The notes below the pieces were generated by a model. The model saw only the letters and a program-made list of their open reading frames with translations. It was not told where the DNA came from and did no database searches. DNA of 64,000 nt from IMG/VR virus record IMGVR_UViG_3300028584_001241; one strand, written 5' to 3'. The translations under genes and the position numbers were made by a program. Source of the stretch: a virus. This document shows, piece by piece, positions 1,737 to 51,755 of the stretch (positions are counted from its first letter, which is position 1; each line of letters starts with the position of its first letter).

Positions 1737-2408
1737 TTAGATAACAAACATTTCAACCAATGCCAGCATTTTCAACATATCAGTTGAATATTCTACTCCT
1801 AATTTTTTTGAAATTTCTTCTCGATAAGATTCAGCAAATTTTATGAAGAAGCCATCTAAATCATTATAGTTAATTACCATTTTAAGTGTCGCATAATCAC
1901 CTTGAGTATACTTAAAATCATAAACAGACTCTCCATTAAATACAATACTGACATCCGCTTTCACTTGATAATATTGATATGTCTTTATTAGCATAATATA
2001 AACTAAATCAAAAGAGTCGATGTCTTGAATAGATTGATAATCATCAGCCAGTGTGATATTCATATGCATCTTTGTAAATCTCTGAAAATCAATATTAATA
2101 AATTTTCCATAATTTTTAATTTTCTTAAGAAGCTTTTGTAAAAATATATCATAGTCTTCTTTGATATAGGGTTTTAATATGTAACGCGAAATAATAGAAG
2201 GATCTCCTACATAAGAAACAAAAGGAACTTGATCGTGTTTTAATGTAATCGCTAAATGTGAGTTATCCATAGGTTTAGTGTTAAAAATAGAAAATTCAAC
2301 AACGTTATCCAATATAAAATGAGAAAACTCTTCTGCAATTGCTGTTAAAATATTATTATCAACGTTTAAAATATTGTCTACTTCATGTATTTTAGCTTCA
2401 TTTGTCAT
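1737..2408 (-). CDS. hypothetical protein, paralog of 2473-3111; C-terminal MxxI motif
   Basis: Shares HLAI.LK.DQ.P, RYILK.YIKEDYD, V.NYNDLDGFFIKF.E.Y with its neighbour; ends LVEMFVI. Confidence 0.85.
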   Translation of the reverse strand: MTNEAKIHEVDNILNVDNNILTAIAEEFSHFILDNVVEFSIFNTKPMDNSHLAITLKHDQVPFVSYVGDPSIISRYILKPYIKEDYDIFLQKLLKKIKNYGKFINIDFQRFTKMHMNITLADDYQSIQDIDSFDLVYIMLIKTYQYYQVKADVSIVFNGESVYDFKYTQGDYATLKMVINYNDLDGFFIKFAESYREEISKKLGVEYSTDMLKMLALVEMFVI

Positions 2409-2472
2409 TTTAATATCACCTTATAGTAGACTAGGTATTATACAAATTAATGATATTAAATCAAGATGATAT

Positions 2473-3111
2473 TTAAAAAAGAACCATGTCAACTAATGTT
2501 TTAAGTTGTGCTGTCTCAGTTGCTCGTTGAACACCTAGTTTTCGTGCAAACTTATTTTTGTACGCTTCAATAAATTTAATAAAGAAACCATCTAAGTCAT
2601 TATAGTTAACAACCATTTTAATATGTGGTTCATTATTTTTATCCATGATGAACTCATAGATTGATTCACCTTCAAACACGATGGTCACTTGAGCGTCTGG
2701 GTAAATATGTTTTTTGTCGCGTAAATGTATATCATAATCAAAACTAATAGCAGTGATATCCTTAATTGAGCGATAATTATCAGCTAAGGTAATGCTAATA
2801 GTTTTTTTCGTCTGGCGTTGAAACTGAATATTCACATAATGACCATAACGTTTCATTGTAGCGAAAATACTTTGTAAGTATTCGTCATAGTCTTCTTTGA
2901 TGTATTCTTTCAAAATATAACGACAAATAAGAGCTGGATAACCAATACCATCAACACAAGGTTCTTGATCTTCTTTTAATTTAATAGCAAGATGAAAGAC
3001 ACCAACAGGTCTAACCAATGGAATCGAGGATTCTTTTGAAAATTCTTCTAATAATCGTTCATCGAAATTGAATGCTTTGTTTATTTTATACGGTTTGGCG
3101 TCAGTGCTCAT
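2473..3111 (-). CDS. hypothetical protein, paralog of 1737-2408; C-terminal MxxF motif
   Basis: Start moved to MSTDAKPY (ATG at 3111, AAGG upstream); ends LVDMVLF. Confidence 0.85.
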   Translation of the reverse strand: MSTDAKPYKINKAFNFDERLLEEFSKESSIPLVRPVGVFHLAIKLKEDQEPCVDGIGYPALICRYILKEYIKEDYDEYLQSIFATMKRYGHYVNIQFQRQTKKTISITLADNYRSIKDITAISFDYDIHLRDKKHIYPDAQVTIVFEGESIYEFIMDKNNEPHIKMVVNYNDLDGFFIKFIEAYKNKFARKLGVQRATETAQLKTLVDMVLF

Positions 3112-3207
3112 AGATAATAATACCTTGTATATGTTCAATAATATCAAAAAATGTCAATATTATCAAGTATAATAACAATCCTTTATTATTATTCAAAAAA
3201 TAAAAGA

Positions 3208-3236
3208 TTGTATAATTATCACTTTTGTATTATAAT
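3208..3236 (+). promoter_or_regulatory. sigma70-type promoter
   Basis: TTGTAT-17 nt-TATAAT upstream of 3272. Confidence 0.65.
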
Positions 3237-3271
3237 AATATAGTTAACTAATAGAAACTAATGAGGAACAA

Positions 3272-3897: not shown

Positions 3898-3920
3898 AAA
3901 AGCCAGTTTATACTGGCTTT
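3898..3920. terminator. bidirectional intrinsic terminator
   Basis: AAAGCCAGT-tta-TACTGGCTTT-type hairpin between convergent ORFs. Confidence 0.7.
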
Positions 3921-5083
3921 ATTGTTTTCTTCTGTTTAATTTTGTTATCCCAATCTTTTAATTCAATTGTTTTAAAGTTATCTTTATCTGATTTATAATC
4001 ATCAATTGTCTCATAAAACCTAACAACTTGATAACCATATTCCTTTAATTTTTCTAACAACAGTTTCTTCTGGAATTCTGGTGTTCGTGATTCTGATTTT
4101 TCGATTCCATACTTTATAAAATAATCATCTTTTAATACCATGAATGGATTTATTTTAGCTTTGAAATCCATCTTGTCAGTATGAGTCAAGATATTTCTAG
4201 AATATAAATCGTCTGCTAATTTTAGAAAATAAGTTTTACCATATTCATTATCATAAGCATCGTCATCATCAGTGAATGGCGTATTGTTATAAAGTAATCC
4301 AATATTCAATGTCTTAATACCGCTTAAGCTATCTTTAATACCAAATTTTTTAGTCAAATAGTCGTTTGGTTGCTCTATATTGAGTTCATTCTTAAAATTC
4401 ATTATCAAACAATTTAACAATGCGTTTGTTTCTTCTCTTAATGTATCATTTCTGGTTCTTAGTGTTTCTAGTGATTGGGTGTAAGTTTCAGTTTCCATTT
4501 CAAATATAGGAACTATCTCATCACTAAATTCTCTATTAAGAATAAAGAGTTCATGTTCTAGTGTTTGTAATTCATTTGCACTACGATCACGTTCAGATAC
4601 TCTGTATGTGTATAGATCATTATCTGACATTGAACTACTTATCATAGATTCTGCTATCTCTAATTCACATTCTTTATTGGTTATTTTTTGTGTAAGTTCA
4701 TTATATGTTTTATAAGCAACATCCCAACGTTCAATAACTCTGTTAACATCTCTTTCCTGATAATCAATATCCACACTAAATTCCAATAACTCTTTAATGT
4801 TATCAATCATTAAATCAATTTCTAAATCAGCTTTAAGAGCTTTAACACTATCAGGTAAGTTTTCATAGCAGGCAATTACACCAGTCACCCATTTATTTAA
4901 GCCATCAACTACTTCAAATAGATCCATTGAATAAACGGGTAATGATTCTGGATTATAGCTTATATCAATATCATAAGCCCTTGAACAGTTTTTACCTTGA
5001 AATATAAGAGGGTTGATGTATGGGCATGTAAACGGATGTGTCTCATGTAAACCAAGCAATGTATCTATGAGTATTTGTTTCAT
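3908..5083 (-). CDS. hypothetical coiled-coil protein with Lys-rich C-terminal tail
   Basis: 391-aa ORF, heptad-rich middle, ends KIKQKKTIKPV. Confidence 0.8.
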   Translation of the reverse strand: MKQILIDTLLGLHETHPFTCPYINPLIFQGKNCSRAYDIDISYNPESLPVYSMDLFEVVDGLNKWVTGVIACYENLPDSVKALKADLEIDLMIDNIKELLEFSVDIDYQERDVNRVIERWDVAYKTYNELTQKITNKECELEIAESMISSSMSDNDLYTYRVSERDRSANELQTLEHELFILNREFSDEIVPIFEMETETYTQSLETLRTRNDTLREETNALLNCLIMNFKNELNIEQPNDYLTKKFGIKDSLSGIKTLNIGLLYNNTPFTDDDDAYDNEYGKTYFLKLADDLYSRNILTHTDKMDFKAKINPFMVLKDDYFIKYGIEKSESRTPEFQKKLLLEKLKEYGYQVVRFYETIDDYKSDKDNFKTIELKDWDNKIKQKKTIKPV

Positions 5084-5154: not shown

Positions 5155-5760
5155 TTATTGAAAGAATGCTATACAATTTGATAGTTCCTGATTTAAAGGC
5201 AATAAGTCTTTATCCTTGATGAGTTCTTTTACTTTCGTAGATTGTTTATTATATTTAATTTTTTCTAAGTATAAAGCATTAAGATTAAATTCGCTATCAA
5301 AGACAATCTCTATAATATTCAATTTATTCTTTGATGGTTTCGATAAATGAAAGATAACGTCCATTAATTTATAGTTCTCATCAAATTTTAGAAGACATTT
5401 AGCATTAAACGATTTAAAATAAATATCATCTTGAATGAGATGGAAGCTTTTAATAGGTTCATCAATCGCTAATCTGTAAAATTCATTAAAGATATTCCAC
5501 TGCCCATTCTCGTTGTCTACAATATAATCACCAACAAACTCACGATGAACGTTTTTCATAAGTTTTTTTATTTCATTTTTATCAAGTTTGAAATGAGTGC
5601 CTACTTTATAAATGGAATCAATTACTTTTGAATAGGCGAGATTGTTCATATCAGCGACCATATTGTCAAAATAGATCTTAACATCATTTGATGACTGTAA
5701 TGAAGACAACCAGTACATGGTAGTTGGTTTCATATTAACTGGAAAATGAATGTGTAACAT
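5155..5760 (-). CDS. hypothetical protein
   Basis: 201-aa ORF; FDENYKL...I.FD..FNL pattern loosely shared with 20638-21627. Confidence 0.75.
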   Translation of the reverse strand: MLHIHFPVNMKPTTMYWLSSLQSSNDVKIYFDNMVADMNNLAYSKVIDSIYKVGTHFKLDKNEIKKLMKNVHREFVGDYIVDNENGQWNIFNEFYRLAIDEPIKSFHLIQDDIYFKSFNAKCLLKFDENYKLMDVIFHLSKPSKNKLNIIEIVFDSEFNLNALYLEKIKYNKQSTKVKELIKDKDLLPLNQELSNCIAFFQ

Positions 5761-18496: not shown

Positions 18497-20503
18497 TTAT
18501 TGGATACATATTTGATACATTTGGTAACCTTCTATTACACCTAAATAGGCACCTCTTGTGATACTCCAAGTATAGCTTCCATAAGAATAGCGAATTTCAA
18601 CATCTGATATTTTAGTTGTGTTTGGAACAACTTGTAAAGGGTTTGAAAATGGAACTACAAAGTCAAATAATCTAGCCCATATAGATGGTGTATTTGGTAT
18701 TGAACTGCCTGTCCAAATAGAGTTGCCATCGGCCCAGAACCTCCAGTTTCCTGAATTTGAATCTTTATTATAGTAACATTGTCTTACAGCATTTGTGCCA
18801 ACGGCTGCTCGTGTATTTGAAGTAACCCCTGTTTGATTCTCATTTGTATTAACCACTGTCACTGTTCCACCTGTATTGTGATCAACGTAACGCTCAACAC
18901 GAGTTCTAGTTTGCGGAATTTGACAATCTGTAGCAGTTTGTGTAAACCCAATAGCTTTATTAACAGAACTCGTAGCTGGTGACCAATTTGTACAATTGGT
19001 AATAGAACCATTGTTAACCCAAGTGCCAACTGTTACTGTATAATTTCTTGTCGCAGTTTGGTTAACTAATGTTTCCGGGGAATTTACAATAGATCCAACA
19101 TTTCTATAAGCTAACGTAGTTGTTTCTTGTTCTCTATTTTGAACAGTTCTCGTTCTATCAGTTTTACAATTTGTGGCAGTCTGAACAAAAGTTCCTGATA
19201 CAGTTTTTGAGGCACCTGTTGGAGTCCAGTTGGTGCAACTATATAGGTTATTAGTCACTGTCCAGTTACCATATATTGGAGTGGCCGAAACCCAAGTTTC
19301 TTTAGTGCCAGTAGCAGATCTTGTTGATGATACAGTTATATTCTGAGATTCTGATATAGCTGAACCAACATTTCTAATCTCATTAGTTGTGCTTTCTTGT
19401 TCGCGATTTTGTTTATTACGAACCTGTGATTGTTGACAATCAGTGGCTGTTTGTGTAAAAGTTGCACCAACGGTCATACTACTAACGGCTGGTGACCAAT
19501 TTGTACAGTTTGTAATAGAGCCATTATTAACCCATTCCGTGTAGGTTGGAGTGATCGCAGCCCAAGTTTCTTTAGTGCCAGTAGCAGATCTTGTTGATGA
19601 TACAGTTATATTCTGAGATTCTGATATAGTTGAACCAACATTTCTAATCTCATTAGTTGTGCTTTCTTGTTCACGATTCTGTCTAGTTCTTGTTTGATTT
19701 TGCTTACAATCATTAGCTGTTTGTGTAAACAATTGACCAATAGTAATAGTTGTTTCGGCTGGTGACCAGTTGGTACAATTATAAACGGAATCAACATTGC
19801 TCCAATCTGTATATAATGGTATAATAGCCAACCAACTTTCTTTTGTTCCTATTGATTGTCTAGTGTTGCTAACAGTCGTTGATCTATTTTCTGTGGTTAA
19901 TGTGCCTGAGTTTCTAATTACTTGCGTATTTTCTCCAATTTCTCTATTTTGTTTAGTTCTCATTTGAAGTTGAGAACAATCTGTTGCTGTTTGCAAGTAA
20001 ATTTGATTAATTGTAATTGTAGAGGGTGCTGGTGACCAATTTGAGCAATTACTAATTTCGCCTGAGTTTAGCCAATCACTGTACAATGGAGTTGTAACTA
20101 TCCAGTTATCTAGTTTTCCTGTATTTGATCTTGTGCTATTAACTAAAATAACTCTATTTTCGTTTTTTGTTCCTACGACTTTGATAACCTGTGTGTTCTT
20201 TTCTAACTCTCTTAATGTAACTACTCTGGTTTCTTTTTGATTACATTCATTTGATGATTGCTCAAAAACAGTTCCATATTTAATTGTCTGTGGATCAGGA
20301 TTCCAGTTGATACAATCAAAAACAGTACCTAATTTTGTCCAATCTCCATATAGGGATGGATAGGATGTAATATCTTTAAATGTTATAGGCTGATCTTTCA
20401 AATTGTATTTAATGACGTAGCCAGCTTGCGTAAATGCCAATAGAGAGGTTGTTAAAGTGCTGAGAAGAAGCAATTTAACATATTTATTATTATTATTATG
20501 CAT
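18497..20503 (-). CDS. secreted repeat protein: about six ~90-aa W/C-rich repeats plus a Cys-bracketed C-terminal domain
   Basis: Signal peptide; repeats Y..W...G....C.NWSP...QTATDC.Q.Q.R..Q.RE; ends ITRGAYLG...YQICIQ. Confidence 0.85.
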   Translation of the reverse strand: MHNNNNKYVKLLLLSTLTTSLLAFTQAGYVIKYNLKDQPITFKDITSYPSLYGDWTKLGTVFDCINWNPDPQTIKYGTVFEQSSNECNQKETRVVTLRELEKNTQVIKVVGTKNENRVILVNSTRSNTGKLDNWIVTTPLYSDWLNSGEISNCSNWSPAPSTITINQIYLQTATDCSQLQMRTKQNREIGENTQVIRNSGTLTTENRSTTVSNTRQSIGTKESWLAIIPLYTDWSNVDSVYNCTNWSPAETTITIGQLFTQTANDCKQNQTRTRQNREQESTTNEIRNVGSTISESQNITVSSTRSATGTKETWAAITPTYTEWVNNGSITNCTNWSPAVSSMTVGATFTQTATDCQQSQVRNKQNREQESTTNEIRNVGSAISESQNITVSSTRSATGTKETWVSATPIYGNWTVTNNLYSCTNWTPTGASKTVSGTFVQTATNCKTDRTRTVQNREQETTTLAYRNVGSIVNSPETLVNQTATRNYTVTVGTWVNNGSITNCTNWSPATSSVNKAIGFTQTATDCQIPQTRTRVERYVDHNTGGTVTVVNTNENQTGVTSNTRAAVGTNAVRQCYYNKDSNSGNWRFWADGNSIWTGSSIPNTPSIWARLFDFVVPFSNPLQVVPNTTKISDVEIRYSYGSYTWSITRGAYLGVIEGYQMYQICIQ
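19291..19678. repeat. 118-bp direct repeat, two copies 270 bp apart
   Basis: 19291-19408 versus 19561-19678 differ only at 19360/19630 and 19403/19673. Confidence 0.9.
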
Positions 20504-21656: not shown

Positions 21657-21881
21657 TCAAACTAGTAACATTCCATCTCCAAAATCATAGTTTATTTCAG
21701 TGGTTTTAAACTTGAATAAATTATTATCATTTTCATTTGTGATTAATTTAATATCAGTATCCAACAAAGATACAAGCCCAACAGTACCTTGTTTGCTAAC
21801 ACGCAAGTTATCTAAAATTGTGGTTAAAACATCTTTCAAAGATGGTTCCTGATGGAATTGTCTTATTGGACTATATGACAT
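21657..21881 (-). CDS. small hypothetical protein; MxxV tail
   Basis: Likely start MSYSPIRQ at 21881; ends GMLLV. Confidence 0.6.
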   Translation of the reverse strand: MSYSPIRQFHQEPSLKDVLTTILDNLRVSKQGTVGLVSLLDTDIKLITNENDNNLFKFKTTEINYDFGDGMLLV

Positions 21882-22001
21882 AGATTCTCTTCGATAAGGT
21901 AACTTATTCAAGTAATTTTCAAACATTATCATAACATTTTTAGAGAAAAATGGCAATCAAAATTTTTCATGATAACTTACATATAATACAGGAGATAATT
22001 C

Positions 22002-22430
22002 ATGGAAAAATTAACCTTTGCTAAACGTGTTAAGTTAGCTGAAAAAAGATTAGGCATTAAACTGCCTATGTCTTATTTAAAATTTATAAAAGAGTTTGAA
22101 GGTGTGGATCATTTAAGTGATAAAGGGTCTGGCAAATGGCTTACATTAGAAGAGTTGGGTGATGGCAATGATTTCAATATTGATATTGATGATAGCACTG
22201 ATGCTATTCGCAAAAAATTAGTAGTTGTTTACACTAACAGCACCAATGACCGCTTAGTGATAGACACTCGATCTATTAATGATGGGAGTTACGGCACCAT
22301 TATTTATCCCGGTGACCCATTAACTGATTCAGTTGATATCCAATATTATAACTTTGAAGAATTTTTAGACAGTGAAGGTAGATTGGATGAAAACAATAAA
22401 TTATGCTTTGATTATTTCAGTTGGGGTTAA
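22002..22430 (+). CDS. SMI1/KNR4 (SUKH) family protein
   Basis: AEKRLGIKLP.SY.KF.KEF.G signature. Confidence 0.8.
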   Translation: MEKLTFAKRVKLAEKRLGIKLPMSYLKFIKEFEGVDHLSDKGSGKWLTLEELGDGNDFNIDIDDSTDAIRKKLVVVYTNSTNDRLVIDTRSINDGSYGTIIYPGDPLTDSVDIQYYNFEEFLDSEGRLDENNKLCFDYFSWG

Positions 22431-22543
22431 ATAACAAATTTATTTAATTTTTTACCTTTATTAAGCAATTTTTTATATTTTTGCTATTGACTTTGTTGTT
22501 TTTCGATCTATCCTATTTTTAACTTATTAAAATGGGGTTTTTT

Positions 22544-23248
22544 ATGAATGGAAAACTGATAGAATTAAAGATATTAAATAAAAATGTTTCAATGAAAAAA
22601 AAGGAATTACAAGATATAAAATCGCACGCTAGTGATTTTGGTGAGAAAGATAGTAGTGGAAATAATATTTATCGTGTTAGTTCAACAACTACATCTACTT
22701 ATAAAAATTATACAGAAACAAATATTGAATTCATTGAAGAATCTACAGGGGATTTATATACTGCTCAAATTATTGAAGATGATTTTCTACCAACAGTTAA
22801 TAGCACAATAAAAGTTTATGTTAGTGATGATAAAAAATTATTAGCGTATCAACCATATAAAAATGCAGACCCAATAATAGTCAAAGACAATTTCCCAGAA
22901 CACGGTATTCTAGATGTTATTGCAAAGTTTATATACGGTATAATATATGCTATTCCTGTAATAACAATTCCTGCAGTATGGGATTTAAGAAAAGCATGTG
23001 AAAGGTACAATGATGGCAATAAATCATCTCGCTATTTGTTAAATGTATTTCTAATGCTATTTTTTGTTTCTTTTCAAGTTTACTTTACTTATTATCTTTA
23101 TGATCATGGTCGTAAACATTTTTGGGAGGCTATGGGTGGTTATTTAAGTGGTGGTATTGTTGTTGGATTACTTACAGCTTTTTCTGAGTTTTCAAATATG
23201 TTAAATTTAAAAAGTTATCAAGTAAAAATAAAAAGAAAATTCAAATAA
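22544..23248 (+). CDS. membrane protein (soluble N-terminal domain plus about 3 TM segments)
   Basis: Hydrophobic segments in the C-terminal half; start may be 22532 or 22544. Confidence 0.75.
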   Translation: MNGKLIELKILNKNVSMKKKELQDIKSHASDFGEKDSSGNNIYRVSSTTTSTYKNYTETNIEFIEESTGDLYTAQIIEDDFLPTVNSTIKVYVSDDKKLLAYQPYKNADPIIVKDNFPEHGILDVIAKFIYGIIYAIPVITIPAVWDLRKACERYNDGNKSSRYLLNVFLMLFFVSFQVYFTYYLYDHGRKHFWEAMGGYLSGGIVVGLLTAFSEFSNMLNLKSYQVKIKRKFK

Positions 23249-23271
23249 AAAATTAAGGAGACTTTATAATC

Positions 23272-28412: not shown

Positions 28413-29015
28413 TTAAATCTCCATCATGCCATACAGCTCTAATTTACGTTTATAATCAACGCCTTCGATATCAAGGTTGGCTTTCGAGAAATACGCTTCA
28501 AGATAGCTGTCAACATAACCAATAAAGTCGGTACAGTTATCAGATTGACCATTTTCTTTAACATTAAATGAGACTTCAAACTCATAGCTCACATTGCTAA
28601 TTTTATGACGTAAAATACCTTGTTCATCATTTATCTGATCAACATTACACTTAATATTCAAATAAGGTCTTCCATTATAAGAAGCACTGGTGATTTTCTT
28701 AAAAATAGGTAAATACATTTTAGCTTTATGGATATTACTTTTAATCAGTGAGCTGTTGATGATCATCCCATTGCCTTTTTTGAACCCATTATTGAGTGGA
28801 ATACGAACAAACAAAGAAAGGTTTTCAATATTATCAGTATATTTAAAATCCATAACCATAATACGAAGATCATTAGATGTTAGATAGTTTTCATTGTTAT
28901 AGTAAATGGTGAGATCTTTCTTACCATAGTAAAAAGTCGTGCGACCTTTTTCAACTTTTAAATCAAAATAAGACTGAAAGGTTTTAAGAAATTTTTCATC
29001 ATTGAATGTTCTCAT
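28413..29015 (-). CDS. hypothetical protein, paralog of 27821-28411; MxxI tail
   Basis: Ends LYGMMEI. Confidence 0.85.
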   Translation of the reverse strand: MRTFNDEKFLKTFQSYFDLKVEKGRTTFYYGKKDLTIYYNNENYLTSNDLRIMVMDFKYTDNIENLSLFVRIPLNNGFKKGNGMIINSSLIKSNIHKAKMYLPIFKKITSASYNGRPYLNIKCNVDQINDEQGILRHKISNVSYEFEVSFNVKENGQSDNCTDFIGYVDSYLEAYFSKANLDIEGVDYKRKLELYGMMEI

Positions 29016-29080
29016 CGTTATTGACCTTATCTATAATTTTCTAATGCGACATTATATCAAATTACAATGCATATAGCTAC

Positions 29081-29716
29081 TTAATTTGGAGTGTTTATCA
29101 ATTTTTGTGCAATGTTATAAGATTTAACTCGCTCATCCATCGTTAATATCTTGTAATGATTTAAATCTGCATATAAATTGTTACTCAACTTTGCATCCAC
29201 TACTCTAAAAATATGTTGAACACTTACACAGTTATAATTACCATTGAGAGCATAGCGTATTTCAATATCAAAATAGATATCATCTAGTAGATAAGAAACT
29301 GATTGTTCTAGGTCTTTCGTAATAACAATCTCGGCTGATATTAGTAAATGAGATGTATAATAATCTTCCTTAGCACTGCTTCTATTCCGATCAGCTATCT
29401 CAATAGAATGATACACAGGCAAATAATCATTAACTTTCTGGATGCCATCTTGTATTTGAACATTGTTGATAGGATAGTTCAAATCAATTTTTTTATTACT
29501 AATTTCAAAAGGTATTCTTAAACTAACTAATCGCTTACTGTGATCTTCATTATGTTTTAAAGCAATCTCCATAAATATTAAATCATCACTTTTACGATTA
29601 CATGAGATATAGTTCTTGTCATCATAATAACCAGAATACCTATTATACTCTGGAAGTGTTATATCCAACTCTTTTTGTAAATCTTCCATGAGTTTATCGT
29701 AATTAACATATAACAT
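29081..29716 (-). CDS. hypothetical protein, diverged paralog of 27821/28413 lacking the MxxI tail
   Basis: LRIPF, Y.P.Y..I in the same register; ends SYNIAQKLINTPN. Confidence 0.75.
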   Translation of the reverse strand: MLYVNYDKLMEDLQKELDITLPEYNRYSGYYDDKNYISCNRKSDDLIFMEIALKHNEDHSKRLVSLRIPFEISNKKIDLNYPINNVQIQDGIQKVNDYLPVYHSIEIADRNRSSAKEDYYTSHLLISAEIVITKDLEQSVSYLLDDIYFDIEIRYALNGNYNCVSVQHIFRVVDAKLSNNLYADLNHYKILTMDERVKSYNIAQKLINTPN

Positions 29717-29725
29717 TATAACTCC

Positions 29726-30436
29726 TTAAACATTCAGCATCGGCAATAGTTTGTAATCCATTAATGCTATTTCATTGACAGGTTTATTTAACATCTTGGC
29801 GACATATTTAAAGAATTCTGTTTTAATTTCATCAATTGAATCCCATCGTTCACAAGAGAACCCAATTTTTGGGTGTTTAAATTCATATTTGTAGGTCTGT
29901 ATTACTTGACAGGTTTCCGTACACAATCCATAAAATAGGTTAATGACAAAGTGTTTATCATCATGAATATGTTCATCAAATAACCTTACTGAAAAACGAT
30001 AGTTATCTCCACACCAATAAAAATGATCTTTAACGTCTTCAATAGAGTTAACGCTGCAAACAACATCCTCACCCAGAATAAAAGCATACATAAGGCGAAA
30101 TTCATTAACAACATGGTTAAGGTGTTCAAAATCTATTTTGGGTGCTGATGGAAAAATCTCAAAGAACTGATTAAATGCATTTTCTGATTTGATTTCAATA
30201 TCAATATAATTTGTATCCTTATTATAAGTTCCCATAAAATAAGAACCATAAAAAGGTTTTTCTGGTATATCGTAACTCAAAACAACTTCATATTCATTCG
30301 AATAAAAATCTGATGGAATAGATAAATTAACCATTTTGTCAAATACTGGTTTTATTTTTTCCATTGTTTGCTTGCTTCGAAGATCAGATTCTTCGATCAT
30401 TTTCATCATTGCGGCTTCATCATATTCCATAATCAT
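29726..30436 (-). CDS. hypothetical protein, paralog of 32525-33208; MxxV tail
   Basis: YI.IE.KS..AF...E.FP....ID...LN...F...Y.F..G; ends YKLLPMLNV. Confidence 0.85.
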   Translation of the reverse strand: MIMEYDEAAMMKMIEESDLRSKQTMEKIKPVFDKMVNLSIPSDFYSNEYEVVLSYDIPEKPFYGSYFMGTYNKDTNYIDIEIKSENAFNQFFEIFPSAPKIDFEHLNHVVNEFRLMYAFILGEDVVCSVNSIEDVKDHFYWCGDNYRFSVRLFDEHIHDDKHFVINLFYGLCTETCQVIQTYKYEFKHPKIGFSCERWDSIDEIKTEFFKYVAKMLNKPVNEIALMDYKLLPMLNV

Positions 30437-32524: not shown

Positions 32525-33208
32525 TTAAATATTTAACATCCTTAAAATCTTATAATGCTCAAACGTTAGTTCAGACATATCAATGCCCAGTTTACCTGTA
32601 ATATAGCGTTTAATGAATTCAGTCTCAAAGTCTTCAAACTCTTTTCGTCTAATGGCATTTTTATCTTGATGAGAATACTGACCAACGGAGTAGTTATAAG
32701 ATACATGATCACGTAACACAATAGGATTAGTATCTATACCGATACCCATACCTACCGAAAAATGTGAATAGGGCTGCTCTCGTTCAGCAACAAGGTGGTT
32801 ATAATTTGGCCCATCGTAAATATGACAACTTATTAAATCATCCATTGTATAAACATTTTTAACATTAAGGTTTCGACCAAAAGCAAAAGTATATAAAAAT
32901 TTAAAACGATTAATATTTTCATTCAATTTTTTGTAGTCAATAGGTGTGGATTGCGGAAACAATTCATATAATTTATAAAAAGCTTGCTTACTTTTTAATT
33001 CAATGCTGATATAATCCGCATGATAATACCCTAAGAAACTAACCCCAGCAAAACGACCTTCACTGATATTCACATCATACCGAGCACCTAAATACTCAAT
33101 ATTCACAATGGCTTCTTCTGACATATAGGGAAGTAAGGCTTCCCTAAATATCTCGATATATTCTACATCATCGGGTTCATCTTCATCATAAATTTCATTT
33201 ACAATCAT
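32525..33208 (-). CDS. hypothetical protein, paralog of 29726-30436; MxxI tail
   Basis: Start moved to MIVNEIY (ATG 33208, 1 nt after the upstream stop); ends YKILRMLNI. Confidence 0.8.
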   Translation of the reverse strand: MIVNEIYDEDEPDDVEYIEIFREALLPYMSEEAIVNIEYLGARYDVNISEGRFAGVSFLGYYHADYISIELKSKQAFYKLYELFPQSTPIDYKKLNENINRFKFLYTFAFGRNLNVKNVYTMDDLISCHIYDGPNYNHLVAEREQPYSHFSVGMGIGIDTNPIVLRDHVSYNYSVGQYSHQDKNAIRRKEFEDFETEFIKRYITGKLGIDMSELTFEHYKILRMLNI

Positions 33209-33209
33209 A

Positions 33210-34148
33210 TTATTCTTCTTTTTTGAAATAAGTCTTTTCTTCATAAAAAATACTGTTTATAAAGTCATCTTGACTGATCATCATGTCTAAATGCTTTTGA
33301 GAAGTTGTGTAAACACCATTTTTAATTTCTTCCATAACCTGTTCAGAGACATCAAAATAAATTTGTGAATAGTCAGAAGATGAAAGATCAGGTCCATGTT
33401 GTTTAACATGTTCGGCCCTAAGTTTTGCCCCAAGTTCATTGACACGACTACGTTTGTAGAGGCTTGATAAACGTTGAGTTTCATCAGGTAATTCAGTGAT
33501 AAGATCCAGTTCAGTAATATCATAAAAATCTACTTTTAAAGGGATATTATACATGGCCTCAGATACGTTTGATAAACCATTTAAAACGCGATTCCATGTA
33601 TGATTACGGTGACTCCATGCTTTGGTTGTCACCTCATCTGGTTTATCTGTGCCATCGTAATACTCATAATCCTTCAAAATTTTAAGTCGTTCATTGATAC
33701 GTTCAAATTCTTTTGCAACTGAGCCTGAAATAGCAAAGTAATAAAGGGTCACATGGCCCACTGTCTTAAAATATATTTTTTCTGAATGAACACTGTGCAT
33801 ATTACGAATATTATGTTCTGACATAAATCCAATAATATCTTTTGCAAAGTCAAATAAAGAACCTTCTTTTCTTTTAAACCTTTGACGAACTTGCAGTTCG
33901 AATGCTTTGTTGTTCAATTCGTGATTGGTTGATTGAAGGTAAGCTAAATAAGATTCATGACGTTGTGTACAATCTGATTTTTGATTCCAGTTATAATTAA
34001 CAATAGGAGACACTAAAGACGCTATATTTGACACTAACGTTTTCTTTAAAATCTGATTAAAAATGACACGAAGTTGTTCATTAACCTTGTTAACCTTTTT
34101 AGAGTTAGAGGTTTCAAGTATGTAACCATTTGAAATACATGTTGACAT
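33210..34148 (-). CDS. hypothetical protein, paralog of 34210-35151
   Basis: Shared MST.I...Y, YF.TVG..T.Y.F, Y.Y...TD.PD.....AW..R...W..V. Confidence 0.85.
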   Translation of the reverse strand: MSTCISNGYILETSNSKKVNKVNEQLRVIFNQILKKTLVSNIASLVSPIVNYNWNQKSDCTQRHESYLAYLQSTNHELNNKAFELQVRQRFKRKEGSLFDFAKDIIGFMSEHNIRNMHSVHSEKIYFKTVGHVTLYYFAISGSVAKEFERINERLKILKDYEYYDGTDKPDEVTTKAWSHRNHTWNRVLNGLSNVSEAMYNIPLKVDFYDITELDLITELPDETQRLSSLYKRSRVNELGAKLRAEHVKQHGPDLSSSDYSQIYFDVSEQVMEEIKNGVYTTSQKHLDMMISQDDFINSIFYEEKTYFKKEE

Positions 34149-39727: not shown

Positions 39728-41350
39728 TCACATTTTTAATTTTAAAGGTTTGCTACCACCTTTAAGTGTCTTAATCATATCATCTTCACTAAGGTTTAAA
39801 GCTATCATTTCAGTAATTTTCTTTTCGTTAGCCACAATTTCAGCATAAGGAATATCTAATTTTGAAATCAACGATAATCTCGTTCGCTCAGATGAAGAAG
39901 GTAATAATACAGCACAGATTTCGTTTTTAAATTTATCAACAGTTTCCAAAACAATACTTGCTTCATCAAAATTCAATCCTTGTTGGGTTGATGGAAAATC
40001 CAAGCACAACACATACTGATTTTCTTTGCAATAGTTAATAACCTGTTTTATTGCATCTTCTAATTGCCCTTCTGGCATATTGTAAGTTAATCTATAACTA
40101 TCTAATCTTAATGTCTTGTAAGTTGATTCATCATTTTTAGAAATACCCGCACACATCATGTATTTAATATCAACGCCCGTTGTGCCGATAAAACGGATAA
40201 CGTCAACATCCATCTCTGGATCAATCATACTATAAGATCGTTTGCAGAAATCAGTTTTAAAGTGTTCATCCATTACCTTTGATTTCTCAAACTCATCAAC
40301 AATATGATCAACATAATTGAAATAAACAATACCTTTTTCTTGTTTATAGATATCATCATCCCTCACAACTGTATGTTTAAATAGGTTTTCTGGTAACTCG
40401 TTAAGTGTTGGATCTTGTTTTAAGGCTTCATTAAACACCATTTCGACTACTGGATTATCTTTGTATAGTTGTTCAATGTTTAAATCATTGCTAACGAGTT
40501 TCATGGCAAATGACAATGACTTTTTAATACGTTCATAAGATAATTGCTCAGTTAGATTGTGTATGAAATTTTTAGGGTCTGTTAATAGTAAATAAGTAAT
40601 GCTATTTTTAGGCAAATGCTCAGCAACAAATTTATTGAAAAATTCAAGTTGTCTATCTTCATCAATATTGTCGAAGTCATAGTTAGTGAGGTCCATATTC
40701 TCAATATAAAACAATCTTCTCATGTGATTAAGCTGATCCTGTCCTTCGTCCATACCATTTTTAATGATGCTATAAATATTGTGTTCAATATTGCTGTCTA
40801 TTGATTTATCATTTTGCTCAAACTTCTTAGCAACTTTTAAAGCAATTTTTAAAATTTCTCTGTTAAAAGGTTCTTCTTCTTTCATCATTTTAATCACTCT
40901 TAAAAAATCTAACTGAGCACGGTCACATGACAACATAACATTATCAATATCTTTAACAGTAATATTATTTAGAAAATCTTTAAAATTGCTGTTTGGTTGT
41001 GTATTTTCTTTAATCTTCAATGCAGATTTTTGTATGTCTTCTGAAACAATGGGTTTGACATCACCCATGAATACACTTTTACCATCAAGTTTTGATCGGA
41101 ATTCAAAACCATCTTGCCCCATAGTTCCATAAAATTTACAGTAGCCTGCTTTTTTATATTCAAGAACAAGCTTAGTATCTCGCGGATCGTGATAAACATA
41201 AATATCAGGATAGGCATCTTTCATAGCAGGTGTGTTCAAAAATTTATGGATGGCTAATATTTCAACATCACTACTAAAAGACATCCCCGTTTCTTTTTCT
41301 ATCTTCTCAAAGACATTATTCATTATTTTACTATATTCTGTTAAATTCAT
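39728..41350 (-). CDS. partner protein of WCI cassette 1, distant paralog of 57018 and 60427; Lys-rich tail
   Basis: Start moved to MNLTEYSKIM (1 nt after the upstream stop); the N-terminus aligns with MN.NDY.K...LA..K....PAL. Confidence 0.8.
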   Translation of the reverse strand: MNLTEYSKIMNNVFEKIEKETGMSFSSDVEILAIHKFLNTPAMKDAYPDIYVYHDPRDTKLVLEYKKAGYCKFYGTMGQDGFEFRSKLDGKSVFMGDVKPIVSEDIQKSALKIKENTQPNSNFKDFLNNITVKDIDNVMLSCDRAQLDFLRVIKMMKEEEPFNREILKIALKVAKKFEQNDKSIDSNIEHNIYSIIKNGMDEGQDQLNHMRRLFYIENMDLTNYDFDNIDEDRQLEFFNKFVAEHLPKNSITYLLLTDPKNFIHNLTEQLSYERIKKSLSFAMKLVSNDLNIEQLYKDNPVVEMVFNEALKQDPTLNELPENLFKHTVVRDDDIYKQEKGIVYFNYVDHIVDEFEKSKVMDEHFKTDFCKRSYSMIDPEMDVDVIRFIGTTGVDIKYMMCAGISKNDESTYKTLRLDSYRLTYNMPEGQLEDAIKQVINYCKENQYVLCLDFPSTQQGLNFDEASIVLETVDKFKNEICAVLLPSSSERTRLSLISKLDIPYAEIVANEKKITEMIALNLSEDDMIKTLKGGSKPLKLKM

Positions 41351-41351
41351 G

Positions 41352-43118
41352 TTATAAACCTTGTTTATATTTATTAGTTTGTTTTTTATCTTTCTTTTGA
41401 AACAATTCATCTAACTCATTTATTTTTTCTTCACTGAGTTTGAATTCCTTCTGATTATTAAACACTATCTTGTTAGCAATCGCGGTTAATGTGTCATCGA
41501 CTGGTAAGTAATCATCATCTCGAAGATGCTGAGTGTGAAACTCACCTGTATCTGTTAATGTAAACCCAATTAATGATTCATTATCTTTTTCATTTTTATT
41601 AAAATCATACAAGAAGTATTGTTTCTTATCGTAAGATGTATAAGTATTAAAATAACTCTCCTGCCTTACAATACACCAGCTAGGGCTACCTAAGTCTTTT
41701 GAGTCTTTATACTCTTTAACTGGGAATACCAATACTTGGCCTTCGTCATAGACAGGAGTAATACCAGCACGCTCTAATTTATTAGAAACAGCTTCATGAC
41801 TAAACCCAGTAAATTGACCAATCACTTTAACTAAATAAGCTTCAAGGTCTTCTGGTGTTTTAATAGCGGCCATCTTCTTGCCTATGATATTTTGTAATTC
41901 TGTTTCTGTGACATTCATCTCTTTAAGCTGTTTAAATGAATTAAGGCTAGTAGGGCTTAACAAGTCTTTATTTTTATTACTAAGAATACTGTGAGCATAT
42001 TGGTGAGTTTTATGTTCACTAATTAAAGCGTTCATATGGTCATCAATAACTTCAAACGATTTATTAACAAAAAGATTGAAATCCATTTTCATGTTTTTTA
42101 AAACTTGTTCATTTTCTAAAAAAGTATTCATGGCATTCATACAATGTTCAAAATGACCATTTTCTTTGGCTAATGAAATAAAGAATTTTGCTATTTTTGG
42201 ACGTTTTTTAAGCTTATAAGCGACTATGCTTTCTTTTAATCCTGAGAAAGCTTCATCCAATTCATTCATTGTATTAATAGTAGAAAATTTCCCTTTACTC
42301 TTTACAGCGATACTCTCATCCTTGAAAAGAATGTACGCTTGGATTTTTTGGTTTTCTTCAAGTTTAATGGCTGCAGTAATGGTTTCATCAAAAGTCTTAT
42401 CTAATAAGAATTGGGAAATATCTCCAGTGGAGTTATTTAACTCATCTGCATACTTAGAACTCATCGTAGATAAAATAGCCGGATTAGCTTCATTTATTCT
42501 GTCGATAAGCCTATCAAGAATAGCATGAAACTCGACAACATTTTCTTTGGTGACTTTTTTAATATTTTCAAAAATATCATAATATGAGTTATCGACTAAA
42601 ACATCTTTGTATTCTTCATTCAGCTCATTGAGCATTCCTAAATAGGTAGAATGAGAGGCAAGATATTTGTTTTTAACTAAATAAGGAGCTATCATTCTCA
42701 ATTCAGATGAATAATCAATGGTTCTTTTGATAGGTTCTAATAATTCAACATTCAATTGTTCTAGTCTATTAACCTGAGCTAATAAATCTGAATAGTCAGC
42801 CCCAGCTTCATCGGCTAATACAGTTAATTGTGTGAAATTGCTTTTTATCGTTTTCATTGTGTTCATTTCGTTCAATGAGCGATATTTGGCATCAATTTCT
42901 TCATCACCTTGAATAGAAAGCATATGATACTGTTCTGTTTGTAAGTATTGTTTTACAGAAGAGAAAGGAACCAGTATACTCTTGTAGTTTGAATTTAAAG
43001 AAAGAACACTAATGTCAGACATATCTTTAAATGGAAGAGATTTTATATAGGCAATACAATGCGTAAATCGTGCAGAGCTACTATAGTTTGAATAAATATT
43101 AGAAAATTCTTGGTTCAT
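41352..43118 (-). CDS. WCI-motif protein (cassette 1); Lys-rich tail
   Basis: LGSPSWCIVRQESYFNTYT...QYFLYDF...SLIGFTL...HLRDDD. Confidence 0.85.
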   Translation of the reverse strand: MNQEFSNIYSNYSSSARFTHCIAYIKSLPFKDMSDISVLSLNSNYKSILVPFSSVKQYLQTEQYHMLSIQGDEEIDAKYRSLNEMNTMKTIKSNFTQLTVLADEAGADYSDLLAQVNRLEQLNVELLEPIKRTIDYSSELRMIAPYLVKNKYLASHSTYLGMLNELNEEYKDVLVDNSYYDIFENIKKVTKENVVEFHAILDRLIDRINEANPAILSTMSSKYADELNNSTGDISQFLLDKTFDETITAAIKLEENQKIQAYILFKDESIAVKSKGKFSTINTMNELDEAFSGLKESIVAYKLKKRPKIAKFFISLAKENGHFEHCMNAMNTFLENEQVLKNMKMDFNLFVNKSFEVIDDHMNALISEHKTHQYAHSILSNKNKDLLSPTSLNSFKQLKEMNVTETELQNIIGKKMAAIKTPEDLEAYLVKVIGQFTGFSHEAVSNKLERAGITPVYDEGQVLVFPVKEYKDSKDLGSPSWCIVRQESYFNTYTSYDKKQYFLYDFNKNEKDNESLIGFTLTDTGEFHTQHLRDDDYLPVDDTLTAIANKIVFNNQKEFKLSEEKINELDELFQKKDKKQTNKYKQGL

Positions 43119-45380: not shown

Positions 45381-45761
45381 ATGAAAAAAATATTTCTAAT
45401 CACTATGTCCTTAGTGATGATAAGTTTTAGTTTTGCTGATTACAGTGTTGTGATTGGCAAAGGATTACCAAAAGAATCTATCAAGTTCGTTGATAGAACA
45501 CCGCCCCCAATTGAGCCTGAACTTCCTCCTGAACCACCTCAACCAGTATGTAAATATAGCTATCCCACTGACTATTGGTTGAATGGCAGAAACACTGCAT
45601 ACAGTATCGTTCATGTTGTTGATAACAGCGTTTTAGTCCACAACGGCAAACAAATTTATGTTACAAGTCATATTGTAGGAAATTTTAAATACACCAGAGG
45701 TGTTTTTATCAAAAATGTTGGCGATTATGCTCATTATAATATTTGCAAAGTTGCCATTTAA
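45381..45761 (+). CDS. secreted protein: Pro linker plus Cys-bracketed domain (family of 18497 and 26255, no repeats)
   Basis: Signal + ADYSVV; CKYSY..DYW...IVGNFKYTRG...YNICK. Confidence 0.8.
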   Translation: MKKIFLITMSLVMISFSFADYSVVIGKGLPKESIKFVDRTPPPIEPELPPEPPQPVCKYSYPTDYWLNGRNTAYSIVHVVDNSVLVHNGKQIYVTSHIVGNFKYTRGVFIKNVGDYAHYNICKVAI

Positions 45762-48942: not shown

Positions 48943-49021
48943 TATTAATATCCTAACTTAGTCATCCTTATATTAACATGAAAATAACAGATAGCAAAAA
49001 ACCTCTTTCGAGGCTTTTGTG

Positions 49022-49396
49022 TTAAAACTTCATCATTTCAACAAGAAGAAAATCATCATCGGTAATTTCTTGTTCTAAAAACCTTCCTTGATCTTTCATG
49101 ATTTCATGAACATCTAAAATCATTTTAAGAAAACCTCGTTCAATGTGCGGTGTTGGATACTTATTTCTGGTAACTTTAAAAGAATACGGTGATTCTTTCA
49201 ATGCCTTTCGTAGTGCTGAGTTATCCAGTATGCTTAAACGCATTCTATTTTCAATATTCGTTCTTTTAATTTCAAAACGATATGTTGGATTCTTTGCAAG
49301 CACATAATCTGCTGTCCTTTTAACCAAGTAAGCATAATAGGTCGCTTCCATCTCAGCTTGCATTTTTTTAGTAATCTTAGCGATTTTAGTAGTCAT
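49022..49396 (-). CDS. hypothetical protein; MxxF tail
   Basis: Start moved to MTTKIAK behind GAGAGGG; ends LLVEMMKF. Confidence 0.78.
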   Translation of the reverse strand: MTTKIAKITKKMQAEMEATYYAYLVKRTADYVLAKNPTYRFEIKRTNIENRMRLSILDNSALRKALKESPYSFKVTRNKYPTPHIERGFLKMILDVHEIMKDQGRFLEQEITDDDFLLVEMMKF

Positions 49397-49580
49397 ATTT
49401 CCCTCTCTTCTATATAAACATTTTACCAAAAAATAGCCTAAAAGTCAAATTTAGAAGGTTCAAAATACGGTTGTAAGCTTTTGTTTAATAAGGATTTTTA
49501 AAATAATTTAAATATTTTTATAAATGATGAAAAAATAAAAAAAGCACCTCGAAAGATGTTTTTTTTCACACTAAAATATT

Positions 49581-50810
49581 TTAATAATGCATGATTTCAT
49601 AAAGCTTGTAATGCTGCGTCATTAAATTATCAACAGATTCATCTATATATTCTGCGACTTCTTGTTCAAATGAATTCTTCATCAATTGAAATAGATCGTC
49701 TGGTAGCTCATCTCTGAATGTGTTAATATTGTCTTTTTTAGGATCTTTTGCTCTAAAAAAGTCTAACAATATAGCCGAATTGGTGTAATCACCCAAATTG
49801 ATAGAAATATCACCTACTGTTTCTTCAAAATCGTCTTCTGATAATATAGATAAATTATAAATATTGGAATATTTCAATTTATATTGAGAAGGTTTTTTAA
49901 AACTGAACCTATAAATCAATGGTTTATTTTTTGAAATAGTTTTCCTAAATTCAATAAAACTCACAACTTGTCGAATAAAAGATGCGTCTTCGGCATTCAG
50001 TATAGCATTAGTTAACATTAAAATTTCACTTGAATCATTAGTTTTGTAGCATGTACTATTACCTCTATTATTAATAATAACTGATTCTTTCAAATTAAAA
50101 TCTTTACAAAAAACTGCAAGATCTTTAATATTTAATTGAGCTGTAGTGGTTTGAATGGCGTCAAAAATAGACATGTTACTTCGTTCTAAAATGTATTTTG
50201 ATGTAACATTAGAACGAGTCGTTACCCTTGCAATGTTTCGCCTTGTTCTTGCATAACAATTGTCAATAAAAACATTAAAAAGCTTATCAAAATTATCTAA
50301 ATTAAGGGTTTCAAGTTTAAAAGACTCACTATAAATATCAAAAGATATACTATTGTTATCTATCTTAAAAAGAACAGGAAGCGTACAATTATTATGATGA
50401 TCATACGCTGAAATTTTCACGTAACCATTTTCGTTTCTAATTTCAATTGATAAAAAATTATTATCTTGATAACTATTACCATAAGCAATCTCATAGTAAA
50501 AATGAACGGCTGACAAAAATTGACGACAATTATTTATTTTTTTACAAAGAATCATTTCAATCAAAGCAATAAGATTTGATTCAGATTGATAGGTTAGATC
50601 ATAGAAAAAACAATTATTGTCTTTGTGAAAATCTTCAAAATAAAGACCTGTTTTACTCTTGTCATTTTTATAATCTTCTCTTGTGAAAATAGGAAGCTCC
50701 ATTTTTTCGCAAAACTGACGGATGGCGTTATCAACAAAAGGAACAATCTCAGCACCTGTATGTGTTCCTGATAAGTCATTAATAATAGAGTTTGAAATGG
50801 CAGTGGTCAT
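49581..50810 (-). CDS. hypothetical protein; variant tail (YKLYEIMHY)
   Basis: 409-aa ORF with TTGATT-17-TACAAT promoter (50867-50839). Confidence 0.8.
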   Translation of the reverse strand: MTTAISNSIINDLSGTHTGAEIVPFVDNAIRQFCEKMELPIFTREDYKNDKSKTGLYFEDFHKDNNCFFYDLTYQSESNLIALIEMILCKKINNCRQFLSAVHFYYEIAYGNSYQDNNFLSIEIRNENGYVKISAYDHHNNCTLPVLFKIDNNSISFDIYSESFKLETLNLDNFDKLFNVFIDNCYARTRRNIARVTTRSNVTSKYILERSNMSIFDAIQTTTAQLNIKDLAVFCKDFNLKESVIINNRGNSTCYKTNDSSEILMLTNAILNAEDASFIRQVVSFIEFRKTISKNKPLIYRFSFKKPSQYKLKYSNIYNLSILSEDDFEETVGDISINLGDYTNSAILLDFFRAKDPKKDNINTFRDELPDDLFQLMKNSFEQEVAEYIDESVDNLMTQHYKLYEIMHY

Positions 50811-50975
50811 GGTTAATCCTATTTAATAAGAGTATCCTATTGTATCAAAAAAATACAATTTAATCAATAAAAAAAGCATTAAAGTAAATTTTTTAATTTT
50901 AATCGAGTAATGTATTTGATTATTAATTTAATTCGGATAAATTACTATTGAAACATTATATTTTGAGGCTAACTA

Positions 50976-51755
50976 ATGGATAATAATAAGAGAATAGAAG
51001 ATGCACTTGACAACCACTTTCCAGAATCAGATATTGCTGTTTATCCTATGCAACATTTTAAAGGAATTTACCATGTAAGCGTCAAAGAAACAGACTTCTG
51101 TTTTGGCTGTATCATTAATAATAATTTTTTAAGGGAAATTCAATCAAAAAATGATTGTTTTGAAGCTGTTCAAAAGTCATTAAATATTTTGCTGCCAAGA
51201 CAAGAAAAAATTGAATGTATTAATCATTTCATAAGAGATTTTTATAATAACGGTAAATTTAATCAAATATTTGAAATGTTTTCTTTAATAGATAATGAAT
51301 CTATATATAAGATAACTCAAAATGAAGAGACTAATTATGCAATTTATCACAGTATGGCAAATCAGTCGCCATTAAATAATTGCCGTCTTGATAAAAAAGA
51401 TTATTTAATTTTGTTAAATTGTTATTTTAAAATGACACAAGATAGAAAGCTACTGGCTGTGCCCACTTTATCTTTTTTCAATGGAAACAATAACCCATTT
51501 AAATTTGAAATTTCATTTAATCTTGAAAACCAAACAGCTCATTTTGTGAAATCATATCCTATGTATTATGATGATTTTTTTAAAGATAATAAAATTTTTG
51601 ATTTTACAACAGATTTAGACTTTGTATTTAAAAATTTTATTAATGAAAATGTTATGAAACATATCGACCCAACCCACGAATTAGGTCGTCAATTAGAGTC
51701 ACTGGATGATGATATAGACGAAAAGATAAAACTGTTATTAATGTATTCTATATAA
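50976..51755 (+). CDS. hypothetical protein; MxxI tail
   Basis: Ends KLLLMYSI. Confidence 0.8.
   Translation: MDNNKRIEDALDNHFPESDIAVYPMQHFKGIYHVSVKETDFCFGCIINNNFLREIQSKNDCFEAVQKSLNILLPRQEKIECINHFIRDFYNNGKFNQIFEMFSLIDNESIYKITQNEETNYAIYHSMANQSPLNNCRLDKKDYLILLNCYFKMTQDRKLLAVPTLSFFNGNNNPFKFEISFNLENQTAHFVKSYPMYYDDFFKDNKIFDFTTDLDFVFKNFINENVMKHIDPTHELGRQLESLDDDIDEKIKLLLMYSI

Follow-up and report, generated by a model that had tools for sequence, protein, structure and literature searches.

The window considered here, that is, the whole 64 kb stretch of DNA in IMG/VR record IMGVR_UViG_3300028584_001241 (GC 26-35%), contains a series of open reading frames (ORFs) for orphan proteins that end in the same way, with a methionine at position -4 and isoleucine, valine or phenylalanine at -1, counted back from the stop codon. 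This ending is here called the tag (M..[IVF] in its shortest form), and each ORF is named by its first coordinate. The ORF set was re-derived from the window and comprises 57 non-nested ORFs of at least 95 aa. The 15 ORFs singled out in the initial annotation are all present at the coordinates of Table 1 and all carry both residues, which bears out the estimate of about a quarter of the coding sequences (15/57); after the correction described below, 14 of them are solid and one variant, 49581, is added.

Table 1. Tagged, variant and related ORFs of the window, followed by two other genes discussed in the text.
Feature	Coordinates	Strand	C-terminal end	Remarks
Family A, 223 aa	1737..2408	-	...LVEMFVI	
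Family A paralogue	2473..3147	-	...LVDMVLF	44% identity to 1737; likely true start ATG at 3111
Family B, 325 aa	14425..15402	+	...TLEMISI	
Family B paralogue	15431..16393	+	...VLKMQKI	29% identity
Family C, 329 aa	20638..21627	-	...TAEMLLF	
Untagged relative of the family C body	5155..5760	-	...CIAFFQ	A for M; kept in three related genomes
Doubtful member, 99-aa fragment	21657..21956	-	...GDGMLLV	
Family E, 278 aa	26984..27820	-	...ILEMEQI	
Family F, 196 aa	27821..28411	-	...LYNMMEI	
Family F paralogue	28413..29015	-	...LYGMMEI	34% identity
Decayed family F paralogue	29081..29716	-		S-Y-N-I-A-Q-K at the tag site, then a 6-residue extension
Family G, 236 aa	29726..30436	-	...LLPMLNV	
Family G paralogue	32525..33244	-	...ILRMLNI	30% identity
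Family H, 257 aa	37458..38231	-	...LTKMILI	
Family I, 229 aa	45815..46504	-	...LLSMLEF	
Family J, ~125-135 aa	49022..49429	-	...LVEMMKF	
Family L, 409 aa	49581..50810	-	...LYEIMHY	variant tag
Family K, 259 aa	50976..51755	+	...LLLMYSI	
Prolyl-tRNA synthetase (ProRS)	16509-17642	-		only 377 aa; bacterial type by sequence; best PDB matches P. aeruginosa, E. faecalis, S. aureus
RTX-type giant, 2326 aa	5861-12841	-		Mbeg1-like lipase domain (GHSLGG) at the N-terminus; nearer the C-terminus, ~13 GGxGxD-type repeats

Enrichment and Extent of the Tag

About 0.3 tagged ends would be expected among the 57 ORFs, whether from the composition of the window or from the frequency of internal M..[IVF] sites, and the 15 observed correspond to a binomial P = 5e-21. 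When BLAST-related pairs are counted once, 11 of 53 ORFs are tagged (P = 1.6e-14), and none of the 42 spurious ORFs, nested or antisense, ends in this way.

The ending had initially been described as preceded by an amphipathic helix with hydrophobic residues at -6/-7. The hydrophobicity of these two positions stands (80% at each), while the motif is longer than claimed and the helix is hydrophobic on most of its faces. In fact, hydrophobic residues also occupy -9 in 87% of the tagged ends, -3 in 87% and -1 in 100%, against 24-50% at -9, -7, -6 and -3 in the other proteins. Acidic residues are found at -15 (60%), -14 (40%) and -5 (40%, E or D in 6/15), and basic residues are absent from -7, -6, -4, -3 and -1. 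A position-specific scoring matrix (PSSM) covering -16 to -1, built by leaving out one family at a time and ignoring -4 and -1, gives the tagged ends a mean of -0.3 and the 93 internal M..[IVF] sites, which lack the upstream context of the tag, a mean of -15.3 (P = 1.5e-8). From this separation and from the additional biased positions it follows that the tag is a motif of 12-16 residues confined to C-termini. Its layout would be a helix cap S/T-x-[ED], then Phi-Phi-x-Phi-Phi-x-M-Phi-x-[IVF] (Phi, hydrophobic), followed at once by the stop, and the whole is predicted by modeling to form a short C-terminal alpha-helix of ~12-16 residues.

Two entries of the list change status on this basis. The first, 21657, has a background-like PSSM score of -12.6 and matches, with 67% identity, the N-terminal part of a tagged gene of 373 aa found intact in a relative (L081:11934-13055), the remainder of which has only 30% identity to 20638, the neighbor of 21657. 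Since the score is that of background and the ORF is a fragment of a gene intact in a relative, its ending is probably due to chance, and the comparison suggests that 21657 is the remnant of a truncated paralogue. The second, 49581, had been called a near variant; it ranks first among the untagged ends (PSSM 8.2) and can be taken as a true variant, because its orthologue in a relative keeps the ending as E-I-V-H-Y (LYEIVHY). A further case is offered by the decayed copy 29081, which has Ile in the place of Met and runs on for six more residues: the sole copy with a C-terminal extension is also without the Met.

The 16 tagged or variant ORFs are rather uniform in size, 13 of them measuring 196-329 aa, and different tagged families may follow one another in tandem runs such as 26984-30436; along the chromosome, different tagged families are not significantly clustered (P = 0.12).

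In two members of the 26984-30436 run, 27821 and 28413, the codons of the tag (ATG-ATG-GAG-ATT-stop) contain the GGAG that forms the Shine-Dalgarno site of the next gene (27818-27823 and 28409-28415, respectively). The genes that follow start 0-1 nt past the stop, and the tag here overlaps a translational coupling signal.

Conservation in Related Genomes

In orthologue pairs, positions -2, -3, -5 and -8 change freely, whereas -4, -1, -6/-7 and -9/-10 are kept. The tail Y-L-T-T-L-[ED]-M-x-K-[VI] of family B is retained in homologues with 47-85% identity; in family F, the Met at -4 and the Ile at -1 persist when the identity of the bodies is 19-23%; L-L-L-M-Y-S-I is invariant in nine homologues of family K (51-89% identity), and the last 14 residues of family J are identical in the orthologue of relative L090. 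The latter has no family I orthologue at the syntenic position. Around the stops, conservation at the nucleotide level is found only in the codons themselves, the flanking codons varying synonymously. Selection therefore acts on the protein, and a nucleotide-level element at the gene ends, conserved as the codons alone are, is ruled out. Judged from these alignments, the tag is under purifying selection.

Further tagged paralogues occur in related contigs beyond the limits of the window, for example four consecutive genes of 249-260 aa ending in L-x-E-M-x-x-[IV]. No tagged gene is present in the 10 kb past the right edge in another relative; with runs of tagged genes in some contigs and none in those 10 kb, the density of the tag therefore varies.

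The Bodies of the Tagged Proteins

The bodies of the tagged proteins had been said not to align. At the level of sequence this holds, except for four paralogous pairs, and at least 11 families can be counted. BLAST among the tagged ORFs recovers these four pairs and one link to the decayed copy 29081. Once the last 40 residues are trimmed, no other similarity between the 12 groups is seen by phmmer --max and hhalign except that of 20638 with 5155, and hhalign between the tagged families, with or without those residues, finds none between bodies. Moreover, profile-profile comparison of the three families for which real alignments are available gives probabilities below 2%, and Smith-Waterman z-scores against shuffled sequences are no higher between tagged bodies than between tagged bodies and untagged orphans. 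Residues 85-255 of 20638 are homologous to the untagged 5155 (E = 2e-5), and body and tag are therefore separable.

By eye, a longer C-terminal module can be made out, formed by a helix, a K-x-L-[DG]-[IV]-[DE] turn and the tag helix, together with a common N-terminal helix. Hidden Markov models (HMMs) covering -48 to -8 or the first 45 residues, built by leaving out one family at a time, did not generalize, for which reason neither the 40-residue module nor the N-terminal helix is statistically supported; in five families (A, B, F, G and I) the -48 to -8 model has its best match at the C-terminus, which lends the module weak support.

The observation that no recognizable enzyme carries the tag is borne out by a Pfam domain in 0/15 tagged and 10/42 untagged proteins (P = 0.049). 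Scans of the tagged proteins with Pfam and NCBIfam returned nothing at E <= 0.1 beyond noise, sequence-profile searches of the PDB with the three aligned families gave nothing significant, and family F has only 7 relatives among 1.84 billion representatives. The tagged families are true orphans. Neither a signal peptide nor a transmembrane segment is found in the tagged proteins (maximum 19-residue Kyte-Doolittle mean <=1.35), while both are present in other proteins of the window.

Structure Models

AlphaFold2 models were obtained for two families. The family F model (10 alignment rows; predicted local distance difference test, pLDDT, 82) consists of a helix, four strands, a long helix, four strands, a helix at 160-174 and a terminal helix at 184-194. 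The family A model (13 rows; pLDDT 70, the N-terminal third poor) shows, past that third, a long helix, five strands, a helix pair at 184-203 and a terminal helix at 211-222 with a pLDDT of ~92. The confidence of the tag helix in the models fits a packing on the sheet. Searches with both models (Foldseek against the PDB, VIA-align wide, AlphaFold Database clusters and ESM Atlas) retrieved no known fold, and the two lists of neighbors do not overlap. The matches of one model were weak and inconsistent (capping protein, JH-binding protein, TipC2/Imm63, BLIP-like; Z <= 6.7), and those of the other were likewise weak (NTF2-like and peptidase fragments; Z <= 4.2), so that no fold was assigned to either.

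Genomic Setting

The tag had been called element-wide, a description that does not survive: the window is an ordinary piece of bacterial chromosome, no mobile element, and the tagged genes are scattered among its other genes. This assignment is based on the AGGAG-type Shine-Dalgarno sites and sigma-70-like promoters (TTGACA/TATAAT-like) upstream of most ORFs and on the housekeeping genes interspersed with the orphans, which encode GAPDH, ProRS, TrxB, AsnB, UvdE, a nucleoside deoxyribosyltransferase, a CNNM transporter and a pyridoxal phosphate-dependent enzyme. An origin from a giant virus, raised by nine tRNA-Leu genes, an aminoacyl-tRNA synthetase, AsnB and UvdE, was rejected because the Shine-Dalgarno sites are strong, the promoters are of the type just mentioned and the Mimivirus AAAATTGA motif shows no enrichment. 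The window is part of a contig of 1.85 Mb, and relatives with contigs of 1.84-1.92 Mb are present in ENA, JGI and Logan assemblies. The host is an uncultured bacterium, probably Gram-negative and host-associated, with a genome of ~1.85 Mb and 30% GC. Matching DNA occurs in sequencing runs from groundwater, plant, leaf, food and soil metagenomes and from some host-labeled samples, and no RNA run is listed among them. The relatives of GAPDH are spread across many phyla, all at no more than 57% identity. Family B was not found in the 406 genomes searched, 401 of which belong to the class of a metagenome-assembled genome labeled Holosporales (itself included), and a scan of IMG/VR with the same family found no relative.

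The ProRS aligns to the PDB enzymes in two stretches and is ~200 residues shorter than they are, and its sequence can be read as having lost the INS editing domain. An Rfam scan of the window yields only tRNAs. The tRNA-Leu genes form an array at 264-1252 with the anticodons CAA, TAG, AAG, TAA, CAG, CAA, TAG, TAA and TAA, of which AAG is unusual; syntenic arrays in relatives comprise 8 genes (L082) or 13 genes (L085).

The giant protein of 2326 aa has a conserved counterpart of 2309 aa in relatives. Two lipoproteins, 71% identical to each other (12894-14144), precede it. Lipoprotein signal peptides with a lipobox, together with the GGxGxD protein, suggest that the cell is Gram-negative and possesses a type I system. 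A protein with a SUKH-1 (SMI1/KNR4) domain, 22002-22430 (+), adjoins the tagged genes; members of the SUKH-1 family are frequent as immunity proteins of polymorphic toxin systems.

Other endings recur in the window as well. Lys-rich tails form a second class, found in many untagged orphans (3908-5083, 22532-23994, 39728-43118 and 54885-63893) and kept in relatives, with examples such as ...KKTIKPV, ...KRKFK, ...KLKM, ...KKTGPKI and ...NKLTI; among these orphans, a cassette of two translationally coupled genes (~600 aa and ~510-560 aa) occurs three times. One orphan, of 695 aa (54885-56972, minus strand), has no NCBIfam match, and its 691-aa orthologue (L090:15242-17317) matches Pfam Phage_T4_Y00F (PF26820). 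A family of proteins with signal peptides and repeated modules (18497-20503, 26255-26902 and 45381-45761), whose 668-aa member matches the 215-aa member five times, also has endings that are alike, ...YQ[MI]CxxAI or ...YNICKVAI.

Interpretation of the Tag

The tag is tentatively regarded, with a confidence somewhat short of even, as a terminus-anchored signal read by a partner, export being the likeliest purpose. In this view, a partner common to all carriers would accommodate the conserved Met, the final side chain (aliphatic or aromatic) and the free carboxylate in a hydrophobic pocket. The tag marks a large, fast-evolving and lineage-restricted set of soluble orphan proteins. Most likely it would serve to export or translocate an effector-like repertoire independently of Sec; docking to a protease or to an assembly hub is less likely. 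Several features count for a signal that is read. First, the register is fixed: Met stands at -4 and the stop always comes three codons on, without drift in length, in families that have no other similarity, and the only extended copy has lost its Met. Second, a near-invariant residue with a single codon is maintained in an AT-rich genome. Third, body and tag can be separated, as the pair 20638 and 5155 shows. Fourth, the carriers appear effector-like, being soluble, devoid of a Sec signal, restricted to a lineage, fast-evolving and tandemly duplicated. The partner itself, and what it would be, we infer. The address label read by a common partner that was initially proposed is thus retained in part: the tag is locked to the terminus, conserved and shared by at least 11 families, but no reader was found in the window or in the related contigs, and its reading as the last helix of one fold is not much less probable.

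Several observations weigh against a signal of this kind. The window and ~100 kb of related contigs yielded no reader, secretion system, protease or hub, and the hub, chaperone, portal or dedicated protease put forward at first has no candidate in the window. The RTX-type giant, a presumptive type I substrate, is without the tag; a freely portable label might be expected on at least a few domain-bearing proteins, whereas no carrier has a recognizable domain; and a few copies in relatives have Ile instead of Met. Furthermore, the terminal helix has a pLDDT of ~81-92 in both models, which fits better with packing into the fold than with a tail that is free, and 6-7 of the last 10 positions are hydrophobic, on most faces of the helix, as suits a buried element. 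Finally, both models end in the same succession of a long helix, a beta meander of 4-5 strands, a helix and the terminal helix.

These last points lead to the explanation that best survives beside a read signal and to which we attach a substantial, if lesser, probability: the carriers may constitute one hyper-divergent, lineage-specific superfamily expanded by duplication, in which the tag is the last helix, packed on the beta-sheet without any external reader, its Met and terminal residue lying in the hydrophobic core or lining a ligand cavity. The shared ending of the two models, with an antiparallel meander, a short loop before the terminal helix and high pLDDT, is in line with this, as are the hydrophobic positions of the tag helix (-10/-9, -7, -6, -4, -3 and -1), the narrow size range, the lack of known domains, the frequent tandem arrangement in which different families are included (26984-30436), and the K-x-[LN]-[DG]-[IV]-[DE] turn shared before the last helix by A, B, F, G and I, the families whose best HMM match is C-terminal. 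It is opposed by the bodies, whose similarity no sequence method detects and which are no more alike than tagged and untagged orphans are; by the failure of both leave-one-out profiles to generalize; by the two models, which have neither structural neighbors in common nor a known fold; and by the non-significant adjacency of different families. Moreover, a merely structural buried site would normally accept L, I, V or F and, in families so divergent, the end would be free to drift in length, whereas here Met is near-invariant and the stop is fixed.

Two other kinds of reader were weighed. That the tag is a docking or oligomerization helix, which would load the proteins into a common assembly or pair tagged proteins with each other, is improbable; a terminal helix on a short linker carried by unrelated proteins does resemble encapsulation peptides, and tagged neighbors are translationally coupled (27821/26984 and 28413/27821), but no shell, capsid or scaffold gene is recognized by Pfam in the window or in related contigs, and the tagged genes far outnumber the cargo sets of known compartments. 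Slightly less probable still is a C-terminal degron or protease-docking site of the form Phi-x-Phi-COOH, read by a PDZ-type tail-specific protease or an AAA+ protease (ClpXP, FtsH, Lon), which would make the tagged proteins conditionally unstable. Non-polar C-terminal tails are recognized by Tsp/Prc, ClpXP (ssrA LAA) and FtsH, the tag stands exactly at the terminus with hydrophobic residues at -3 (87%) and -1 (100%), and its carriers are soluble, cytoplasmic-type proteins; on the other side, the conserved unit is a helix of 12-16 residues and not a tail of 3-5, the AlphaFold2 models suggest an end that is folded and not floppy, no protease or adaptor gene is linked to the tagged genes in the window, and marking the products of a quarter of the local genes for degradation would have no obvious rationale. 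Chance, AT-rich compositional bias or an artifact of ORF calling has practically no probability and is already refuted: although Ile and Phe are frequent at 30% GC and 21657 is indeed a chance match, the enrichment over window composition, the untagged spurious ORFs and the orthologues that keep the tag in several related genomes all speak against it.

Two explanations survive, the read signal and the last helix of one superfamily, and they are compatible, as a single effector family could keep an export signal. In its widest form, the reading as a signal would make the tag an undescribed C-terminal targeting signal on possibly hundreds of fast-evolving, effector-like proteins, read by an export machine or receptor, a proposal that we hold to be rather unlikely; that it had not been recognized as a described signal agrees with the literature, in which a search for a motif of this kind gave nothing relevant. 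If the tag is read by a partner, it provides a one-line rule for drawing up the whole hidden set of proteins that an uncultured lineage exports or targets, and a handle on the machine that reads it, through the tail peptide or through co-occurrence across genomes. If it is instead the final helix of a single hyper-divergent family, it illustrates the extent to which the members of a lineage-specific expansion can drift apart with one 12-residue element retained, and it cautions against reading every shared terminus as an address label.

Comparison With Known C-Terminal Signals

Two classes of signal can be set aside. The tripartite sorting signals (LPXTG, PEP-CTERM, GlyGly-CTERM) do not apply, as the tagged proteins have no signal peptide, no transmembrane helix and no terminal basic cluster, and the beta-signal of outer-membrane proteins does not apply either, given the lack of signal peptides and the Phi-Phi-x repeats of the tag, which are predicted to be helical.

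Encapsulation peptides of microcompartments and the cargo peptides of encapsulins consist of a short terminal amphipathic helix on a short linker, borne by unrelated cargo. The carriers of the tag differ in being far more numerous and in being orphans, not enzymes, and the hydrophobicity of the tag exceeds that of a typical amphipathic peptide; no Pfam match to BMC, EutN or encapsulin was obtained in the window proteins scanned or in the called genes of related loci. With class II PDZ ligands and degrons the tag has in common the Phi-x-Phi-COOH end, followed at once by the stop, with a free C-terminus that is hydrophobic at 0 and -2. It differs from them as a helix of 12-16 residues, predicted to be folded, with a conserved Met at -3 in PDZ numbering, and no gene for a PDZ or AAA+ reader is found in the window.

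A closer likeness is offered by the type I secretion signals. Ghigo and Wandersman are said to have reported in 1994 that those of the protease/lipase/HasA group present an acidic and then hydrophobic residues, which are required to stand at the very C-terminus. Such signals are uncleaved, stand at the exact end and serve substrates without an N-terminal signal peptide, and the tag has E or D at -5 in 6/15 ends, followed by M-Phi-x-Phi; in addition, the giant with GGxGxD repeats suggests a type I system in the same genome. The giant itself, in contrast, ends in ...STFIKKNE, without the tag, and no gene for an ABC transporter, a membrane fusion protein (MFP) or TolC adjoins the tagged genes. 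A genome has but a handful of type I substrates, whereas the tag is on a quarter of the local genes.

In the Legionella/Coxiella Dot/Icm (type IVB) system, effectors are recognized by their extreme C-terminus: a hydrophobic residue, an acidic E-block and a helix motif to which the adaptor LvgA binds (PMC7251119). These signals lie within the last ~20-35 residues of proteins without a Sec signal peptide; the tag, likewise borne by many sequence-unrelated orphans that have no Sec signal, occupies the last 12-16. The hydrophobic residue near the end of RalF-type signals has its counterpart at -1 (100%), -3 (87%) and in the Met at -4 (100%). Acidic residues are enriched at -15 (60%) and -14 (40%), in the region 10-17 residues from the end where the E-block stands, but do not form EExxE. 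LvgA binds a FxxxLxxxK helix, and the tag helix could fit the hydrophobic pocket of such an adaptor. No Dot/Icm gene appears, either within the window or across ~100 kb of related loci. An invariant residue in a fixed register is a feature of neither the type I nor the Dot/Icm signals, the latter being degenerate, whereas in the tag Met is fixed at -4 and the end is I, V or F; this fixed register and invariant Met would make the tag far easier to test than degenerate type IV or type I signals.

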